The notes beneath the pieces were generated by a model that had not been told where the DNA came from, ran no database searches, and worked only from the letters and a program-made list of their open reading frames with translations. 64,000 nt of DNA from Escherichia phage LF82-1: the sequence record PV648359; one strand, 5' to 3'. Shown here one piece after another: positions 59,208 to 62,513 of the stretch. Each line of letters begins with the position of its first letter. Positions within the stretch are counted from its first letter, which is position 1. A program made the position numbers and the translations under genes.

Positions 59208-62200
59208 ATGGCTACTTTAAAACAAATACAATTTAAAAGAAGCAAAACTGCAGGAGCACGTCCTGCCGCTTCAGTATTAGCCGAAGGTGAATTGGCTATA
59301 AACTTAAAAGACCGTGTACTTTTTACTAAAGATGACCAAGGAAATATTATTGATCTAGGTTTTGCTAAAGGTGGTAGTATTGACGGGAATGTTATTCATA
59401 CTGGCAATTACAACCAAACTGGTGATTATACTTTAAATGGCGTCTTCACACAGACGGGTAATTTTAATTTAACTGGTATTGCTCGAGTAACTCGCGATAT
59501 TATTGCCGCCGGGCAGATTATGACTGAAGGCGGAGAACTTATTACAAAAAGTTCAGGTACAGCACATGTTCGTTTTTTCGATGGCAATAGTCGCGAACGT
59601 GGAATCATTTATGCCCCGGCTAATGATGGTTTAACTACACAAGTACTTAATATCAGGGTTCAAGACTACGCTGCTGGTAGCGAAAGCATTTATGCATTTT
59701 CAGGCAGTGGCCTATTTATTTCACCTGAAGTATCAGCACATAAATCTATTTCGTCTCCACAAATTCTGACCGACAAAGTTATTACAAACGGGAAGAAGGC
59801 AGGAGATTATGATATCTATTCATTAGCAAATAACACTCCATTGGCAGAAAGCGAAACGGCTATTAACCACCTCCGTGTTATGCGAAATGCCGTAGGATCT
59901 GGTATATTCCATGAAGTTAAAGATAACGACGGGATAACCTGGTACGCCGGTGACGGGTTAGATGCCTATCTTTGGTCGTTTACCTGGTCCGGTGGATTGA
60001 AAGCAGGCCATTCTATTTCTGTTGGTACTCCTGGTGGCAATAAAGGATACTCTGAATTAGGGACTGCTTCAATTTCTCTTGGCGATAATGATACCGGGCT
60101 AAAATGGCATCAGGACGGATATTTCTATACAGTAAACAACGGAACAAGAACTTTCCTTTACAGCCCTGAATCAACTGTAAGCCTTAGAAAAATGGTCATG
60201 GGTTATTCTGTAAACGGCAACGATTTAACTACGCCGCCAACAGAAAACTATGCTTTGGCTACTGTCGTGACATATCACGATAATAACGCGTTTGGAGATG
60301 GCCAGACTCTTTTAGGATATTATCAAGGCGGTAATTATCATCACTATTTCCGCGGTAAAGGTACTACAAACATTAATACTCACGGCGGTTTGTTGGTTAC
60401 TCCTGGTAATATTGATGTTATTGGCGGTTCTGTTAATATAGATGGTAGAAATAATTCTTCTACACTAATGTTTAGAGGCAACACAACAGGATACAGCTCG
60501 GTTGATAATATGGATATTAAAGTTTGGGGTAATACGTTTGTTGATCCAAGCGGAGGTATCCGTAAAAACATTATGGAAATTTCTGATGCAACTAGCTGGA
60601 TGAGCTATATTCAAAGACTTACTACTGGCGAAGTAGAAATGAACGTTAATGGTTCATTTGAATCATCTGGTGTTACTGCTGGAGATAGAGGAGTTCACAC
60701 AACAGGTGAAATTTCATCTGGAGCAGTGAATGCTCTTCGTATTTGGAACGCAGATTATGGAGCCATTTTTAGACGTTCAGAAGGAAGTCTTCATATTATT
60801 CCAACTGCTTATGGCGAAGGCAAAGATGGCGATATTGGTCCACTTCGCCCATTTAGTATGGCTTTAGATACTGGTAAAGTTACTATTCCAGATTTACAAT
60901 CAAGTTACAATACGTTCGCTGCTAACGGTTATATTAAATTTGTTGGTCATGGAGCGGGTGCCGGCGGTTATGACATTCAATATGCTCAAGCGGCTCCTAT
61001 TTTCCAGGAAATTGATGATGATGCTGTAAGCAAATATTATCCTATTGTTAAACAGAAGTTTTTAAACGGTAAATCTGTTTGGTCTTTAGGTACCGAAATT
61101 GAATCAGGTACATTTGTTTTACACCATATCAAAGAAGATGGATCACAAGGCCATACGTCTCGTTTTAATCAAGACGGTACCGTTAACTTCCCGGATAACG
61201 TTCTGGTCGGCGGGGGCGAAGCTGCTATTGCTCGTAATGGTAATATTTTCTCGGATATTTGGAAAACGTTTACTTCAGCAGGAGACATTACAAATATTCG
61301 CGATGCAATAGCTACTCGTGTTGCTAAAGAAGGCGATACGATGACAGGTCGTTTAACTCTTAAAACCAACTCAGATGCTGTTGTTATTGATTATCCGGCA
61401 GATGAAGCGGGTTATGTTAAGGGTAAAAAAGGTGGTGCTGATAACTGGTATGTCGGTAACGGTGGTGCTGATAATGGTTTAGCCTTCTGGAGCTTCCAAT
61501 CCCAAGGCGGTATTAATATTAACCCTAATGGCGAGGTTATTTTAGCCCCACAAGGTGTTGCAATGTTCAATATAAACCGCGACCGTATTCATATGAATGG
61601 TTCCAACTGGATTGCACATAAATCTGGTGCATGGGGCGACCAATGGGGCTTAGAAGCACCTTATTTCCTTGATTTTGGTAGCGTTGGCGAAGACAGTTAT
61701 TATCCTATCATTAAAGGCAGGTCTGTAATTAGTGGTCAAGGATATACTACTTCTGTTGACCTTGGTATTAGACGTACACCTCAAGCATGGGGACAAGCGA
61801 TAATTCGAGTTGGTAATGCCGAAGGCGCTGACGGTCCTGTGGGTGTTTTTGAATTCCATTCGTCTGGACGATTCTATAGCCCTAATATGGTTCAAACTCC
61901 TGCAATCGGTGTTGGTACTGATAATGGACTTGGTGCTCCTAGTATTGCAATCGGCGATGATGACACTGGCCTATCACATGGCGGTGATGGCCGAATCAAT
62001 ATGGTTGCCAATGGTATACATATCGCAAACTGGGGTGCAGGCTATCAATCTCATCCTGGCCTTTGGGATTCAAATGGAGCCTTTTGGACAGAAGCTGGCA
62101 GAGCAATTGTTTCTCATGGTCATTTAGTTCAGGCGAATGACAGCTATTCAACGTATGTCCGTGATGTTTATGTCCGCTCTGATATTCGTGTTAAAAAGAA

Positions 62201-62513
62201 CCTCGTTAAATTTGAAAATGCTTCTGAGAAGCTTTCTAAAATTAACGGTTACACTTATATGCAGAAACGTGGAACAGATGAAGAAGGTAATCAGAAATGG
62301 GAACCTAACGCTGGTTTGATAGCTCAAGAAGTTCAAGCTATTTTACCAGAATTAGTTGAAGGCGACCTAGATGGTGAAGCTTTACTTCGTTTGAACTATA
62401 ACGGTGTAATTGGTTTAAATACAGCTGCAATCAATGAGCATACTGCAGAAATTGCAGAACTTAAGTCAGAGATTGAAGAGCTTAAAAAATTAGTTAAATC
62501 ATTGTTAAAATAA
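59208..62513 (+). CDS. 37: long tail fibre distal subunit gp37 with C-terminal intramolecular-chaperone-like domain
   Basis: 1101 aa; C-terminal ~110 aa (SDIRVKKNL...[14 protein letters not shown]...coiled-coil end) resembles the self-cleaving chaperone domain of phage fibres/endosialidases. Confidence 0.9.

Follow-up and report, generated by a model that had tools for sequence, protein, structure and literature searches.

A Peptidase_S74 intramolecular chaperone domain with a predicted autocleavage site at the C-terminus of the long tail fibre protein gp37 of Escherichia phage LF82-1

The 64,000-nucleotide stretch of Escherichia phage LF82-1 that was analysed here (record PV648359; hereafter the window) carries its fibre genes in the order 34-35-36-37-38-t, t being the holin gene, as is the case in T2 and T4 (Table 1). 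Genes 37 and 38 are 100% identical to those of Escherichia phage LF82-5 and its siblings, which are Mosigvirus members (Straboviridae) isolated on E. coli LF82. Gene 37 is one single long open reading frame of 1101 aa on the plus strand (59208..62513), named "long tail fiber protein distal subunit" in the 100% identical record PV660449.1. The minus-strand ORFs found inside gene 37 were rejected as genes, since they reach at most 98 aa, are nested in the long frame and have no support. In the neighbouring hinge protein gp35 (57359-58483, plus strand), aa 58-131 match the Pfam family ILEI (interleukin-like EMT inducer, PF15711; E 6.7e-7, score 30.2 bits, cut-off 27), a family that is precomputed for gp35 of another Mosigvirus contig as well.

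Table 1. Features of the distal fibre region, with positions in the window
Feature	Coordinates	Strand	Description	Basis
Gene 36	58543..59199	+	Small distal subunit joining gp37 to the hinge	PF03903 (E 1.8e-28); annotation
Gene 37	59208..62513	+	Precursor of the distal long tail fibre subunit (1101 aa, ~118 kDa)	ORF list, annotation, Pfam
Predicted mature gp37	59208..62177	+	aa 1-990, ~105.8 kDa, ending in strand DVYVR	SDIRVK boundary, homologue sites
C-terminal intramolecular chaperone / Peptidase_S74 domain	62178..62510	+	aa 991-1101, 111 aa, ~12.4 kDa; release by autocleavage is predicted	
Catalytic motif	62178..62195	+	S991-D-I-R-V-K996, with the nucleophilic Ser at the scissile bond and the Lys five positions further along	Read in the sequence
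Terminal helix with heptad pattern	62397..62507	+	aa 1064-1100, presumed trimeric coiled coil	AlphaFold helix, heptad count
Gene 38	62545..63318	+	T2/S16-type monomeric adhesin, 257 aa, with N-terminal attachment domain	Pfam, PDB matches, Trp spacing

In T-even fibres gp37 is a trimer, and the protein studied here returns two Pfam matches, Gp34_trimer and Peptidase_S74. The former lies at aa 453-550 (60564-60857), where the C-terminal trimerisation domain of gp34 is matched (PF21446, E 1.2e-6), and aa 418-561 match PDB 4UXE/5NXF with an E-value of 4e-12; this gp34-type module is common to the proximal and distal half-fibres and is also present in the gp37 of T4 and T2. The first-pass annotation had put gp37 at about 75 aa longer than its T4 counterpart, a figure that proved exact (1101 versus 1026 aa, T4 gene 37 being 3081 nt long in NC_000866), and had proposed that the last ~110 aa resemble the self-cleaving chaperone domains of phage fibres. 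Both of the strings that it cited in this regard were located at the C-terminus of the gp37 ORF.

The chaperone-like nature of these last ~110 aa is borne out by sequence, by predicted fold and by a Ser-x4-Lys motif at the domain boundary. A search with the Peptidase_S74 profile, which had been suggested along with the proposal, was run on gp37 and places PF13884 ("chaperone of endosialidase") on aa 991-1050 with an E-value of 7.4e-13 and a score of 49 bits, the curated gathering cut-off of the family being 22 bits, and with profile positions 1-57 of 58 covered. The domain thus identified sits at the extreme C-terminus and makes up the last 111 of the 1101 aa. Among solved chains the nearest is 6F45_A, the gp37 tip construct of Salmonella phage S16, to which aa 906-1101 align with E 4e-45 and the last 133 aa taken alone with E 1.6e-34; weaker matches to these 133 aa, which show the motif in the same register, are the ICA domain of MyRF (7DC3, E 0.008) and a phage tail fibre (8JOV). 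The domain is widespread, in that a tblastn search of phage genomes with the 111 aa found matches in 1243 records, including T-even relatives, T5-like phages, Klebsiella jumbo-type myoviruses and cyanophages.

A large protein database search returned only 21 matches, most of them fragments, and the resulting alignment is thin, yet still sufficient to model the domain with confidence. With regard to these fragments, 170-aa entries named "tail fiber domain-containing protein [Escherichia coli]" were considered as stand-alone chaperone genes or as the products of a split gene 37 and rejected, since the full 1101-aa ORF is intact in a contig that carries one of them (ABESBY010000008.1 of GCA_021537435.1, ORF 2208-5513). 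They are C-terminal fragments of gp37 that start at an internal Met, i.e. an annotation artefact, and the contig is a 167-kb phage genome within an E. coli assembly.

The structure of aa 960-1101 was predicted with AlphaFold as a monomer, using an alignment of database homologues. The model has a mean pLDDT of 78, with values of 83-95 over most of the domain and 73 in a single block of 10 residues; ahead of the presumed cut the model is poor, with pLDDT below 50 at query residues 1-27. The predicted fold agrees with that of the family, in which a long C-terminal helix comes after a β-hairpin core. The only credible neighbours that Foldseek found in the PDB were MyRF ICA (E 8e-7, TM 0.65) and the endosialidase chaperone 3GW6 (probability 0.99-1.0). 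The fold matches extend over the entire domain, at 107-116 aligned residues.

The coiled-coil ending that had been read from the letters is supported by the model, where one helix takes in query residues 105-141 of 142 (pLDDT 86-95). In one heptad phase, 8 of its 12 a/d positions hold I, L, M or V, a modest statistic, as 418 of 20,000 shuffles reach the same count (p ~0.02). The pattern is consistent with the trimeric coiled coil of solved family members, and it is from these homologues that the packing of three such helices would be expected in gp37.

The domain starts at S991, in the sequence DVYVR|SDIRVK, with the Ser-Lys dyad arrangement of the family, and both S991 and K996 are intact in this gp37. 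In the Peptidase_S74 family, it is the Ser-x4-Lys dyad that reportedly performs the autoproteolysis. Among the 16 homologues that cover the site, SDxRxK is present in 14, the exceptions having Pro in place of Ser (P0009) and a residue other than Lys at the Lys position (P0007); P0009, a metagenome sequence, reads RPDRRVK with the Lys kept and may be a naturally non-cleaving variant. The gp37 motif aligns column for column with those of S16 (DLNVS SDRRIK) and T2 (NVYIR SDIRLK), and the same register is found in MyRF and 8JOV (SDERLK). Judging from the motif, cleavage between R990 and S991 would split the precursor into a 990-aa mature gp37 (~105.8 kDa) and a 111-aa fragment (~12.4 kDa).

Such processing has been described for several relatives. 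According to PMC7917993 (which cites Dunne 2018 and Schulz 2010), the last 113 residues of S16 gp37, which act as an intramolecular chaperone, are autocleaved following trimerisation of the protein, the cut falling between two serines in DLNVS^SDRRIKK. The same paper describes recombinant S16 gp37 as autocleaved and has gp38 docking on the face that is exposed by the autocleavage of the chaperone. For the Yersinia fPS phages, cleavage has been predicted after DVYIR in DVYIR^SDGRLKI (PMC7917993), a motif almost identical to DVYVR|SDIRVK of the gp37 studied here. The gp37 proteins of T2 and T6 are processed at their C-termini and then capped by gp38, as stated in PMC3157838, which cites Drexler, Riede and Henning 1986. 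A literature search for an explicit statement on cleavage of a Mosigvirus or RB69 gp37 found none, the published ones concerning S16, the fPS phages, T2 and T6; this absence is a gap in the written record rather than in the understanding of these fibres.

The gene that follows encodes the partner expected of a T2-type tip, and here too the first-pass annotation, which had foreseen a receptor-binding tip built with gp38, was right as to the type. The product belongs to the T2/S16-type adhesins by its Pfam matches (PF05268, E 3.7e-83; N-terminal attachment domain PF21721, E 6.6e-20) and matches both PP01 gp38 (9V85, E 1e-74) and S16 gp38 (6F45_D, E 4e-47). Its tryptophans W7, W20 and W35 have the 13/15 spacing seen in T2 gp38 (W9, W22, W37) and in RB69 gp38, and in S16 the gp37 trimer has at its base three equivalent pockets that take up these tryptophans of gp38 (PMC6851490). 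The start of gene 38 is most likely ATG 62545 rather than TTG 62533, because Gp38_N begins at residue 5 of the TTG ORF and GenBank annotates ATG 62545, which gives a protein of 257 aa beginning MAVAGPW.

The presence of the domain, its family as assigned by sequence and by predicted fold, its catalytic motif and the type of gp38 are all direct observations at this locus. We consider it very probable that gp37 S991-K1101 is a Peptidase_S74 intramolecular chaperone which is autocleaved at R990-S991 so that gp38 can dock. By homology to the fibres of S16, T2, the endosialidases and T5, from which we infer trimer nucleation, autocleavage and gp38 docking, the chaperone domains would put three nascent gp37 chains in register, trimerising via their β-hairpins and a terminal three-helix coiled coil. 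The chaperone trimer would then nucleate the folding of the interdigitated β-helical tip, starting at its C-terminal end, and once the trimer has folded, S991, activated by K996, would attack the R990-S991 peptide bond, upon which the chaperone domain of ~12.4 kDa would dissociate. The flat end now exposed, to which each of the three chains contributes its DVYVR strand, would bind one gp38 molecule by its N-terminal domain of three helices and three tryptophans, and receptor binding would be left to the hypervariable loops of the gp38 polyglycine sandwich.

Of the other explanations that were weighed, the one that survives best is that the S74-like domain serves as a folding or trimerisation module that is kept uncleaved on the mature fibre, with gp38 attaching elsewhere or transiently. 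Natural variants that lack the Ser nucleophile do exist, as seen in P0009 (RPDRRVK), so that uncleaved versions are conceivable; in the gp37 studied here, however, S991 and K996 are both intact, the S16 domain, which is 56% identical, is autocleaved with gp38 docking on the exposed face (PMC7917993), the gp37 of T2 and of T6 is processed, and the attachment domain of gp38 is conserved. The intact dyad and the conserved attachment domain make an uncleaved domain unlikely.

It has also been considered that the C-terminus might be removed by a separate protease of the phage or of the host, the S74 match then reflecting a shared fold only. This would accord with the 1986 work on T2, which established the processing without naming a protease. 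Against it stands the position of the Ser-x4-Lys dyad, which lies exactly at the domain boundary and is kept across divergent homologues, barring one Pro at the Ser position and one non-Lys residue at the Lys position, and so does the description of recombinant S16 gp37 as autocleaved (PMC7917993); given the dyad and the autocleavage in S16, an external protease is highly improbable. Finally, that the S74 resemblance could be spurious and stem from a low-complexity coiled-coil tail, as might be thought because the last ~35 aa form a Glu/Lys/Leu-rich helix which BLAST masked, so that coverage ended at residue 89 of 111, has next to no likelihood, since such an artefact is excluded by the Pfam match at aa 991-1050, which lies upstream of the coiled coil, and by the fold matches, which take in the whole domain over 107-116 aligned residues.

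The chaperone domain is also marked by a step in conservation that coincides with the predicted cleavage site. Relative to the gp37 of RB69 and of a second Mosigvirus, identity is 46-76% over aa 700-990 (61300-62177) and 94-100% from aa 991 onwards (62178-62510); a second divergent patch is found at aa 150-300. The module that is to be discarded is thus far more conserved than the adjoining shaft that is retained, as fits a host-range region of mosaic make-up that carries a device for assembly and cleavage under constraint. On account of this difference in conservation, and of a coiled coil that is longer than that of T2, the thought arises that the released 12.4-kDa fragment might have a second role after cleavage, either in the timing or gating of gp38 loading or in trans on other fibre proteins. 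We regard this as very unlikely, and strong conservation is equally expected of a module devoted purely to folding and cleavage.

Comparison with characterized systems places this tip closest to that of S16 (PDB 6F45; Dunne et al. 2018). The S16 gp37 has the same interdigitated β-helix tip, cleavage motif and chaperone domain of ~112 aa ending in a coiled coil, and the gp38 that comes after it likewise combines an attachment domain bearing three Trp residues with a polyglycine sandwich. The two differ in the residues that precede the cut (DVYVR here, DLNVS in S16), in a 12-residue insertion in the tip of the present protein, in the host and in the gp38 loops, and their chaperone domains share 56% identity. 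In RB69, the type species of Mosigvirus, 109 of the 111 residues of the chaperone domain are shared (98% identity), and neither the cleavage motif nor the N-terminus of gp38 differs, whereas identity is only 52-74% in the mature distal shaft (aa 700-990), which is the usual host-range mosaicism. In T2 gp37 (1341 aa), Peptidase_S74 is found at aa 1243-1300 (E 3e-15), with NVYIR|SDIRLK at the boundary and a gp38 adhesin following, although its chaperone domain is only 37% identical to the present one and, at 99 aa, is shorter and lacks the last heptads.

More remote are the chaperone domains of the K1F endosialidase endoNF (3GW6), the T5 L-shaped tail fibre pb1 (4UW8) and the GA-1 neck appendage (3GUD), with which identity is only 12-20%. 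In those systems the mature fibre or spike itself binds the receptor, whereas here cleavage would, by analogy with S16, expose a site for a separate adhesin. The eukaryotic MyRF ICA (7DC3) belongs to a membrane-bound transcription factor, in which cleavage frees the N-terminal part so that it can enter the nucleus, and is related by descent or transfer rather than by function. T4 gp37, for its part, shares the gene position, a homologous N-terminal two thirds and the Gp34_trimer-like domain, but has no S74 domain, its C-terminus forming the collar and the needle-shaped receptor-binding tip; T4 gp38 is an unrelated assembly factor, T4 using gp38 and gp57A as separate chaperones.

A self-cleaving chaperone on gp37 is the normal and already described state of long tail fibres of the T2/S16 type, the mechanism having been worked out previously in endosialidases, T5 and S16, and the processing of T2 gp37 having been known since 1986. 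As concerns annotation, the mature virion gp37 is predicted from the cleavage motif to have 990 aa rather than 1101. For engineering, recombinant fibres and host-range swaps in LF82-infecting phages would have to keep the 111-aa domain including S991 and K996, because, as in the homologous fibres, it is probably needed for the fibre to fold and to accept gp38.

By the same analogy, the receptor-binding determinant would be gp38 and not the C-terminus of gp37. The closest solved relative of this gp38 is the OmpC-binding gp38 of PP01 (9V85), the match extending over aa 36-256; the β-helix part of the two proteins is nearly identical, and the glycine-rich distal part and the loops differ, so that the receptor is not readable from the sequence. 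The G+C content rises to 0.50 in gene 38 on account of its Gly codons.
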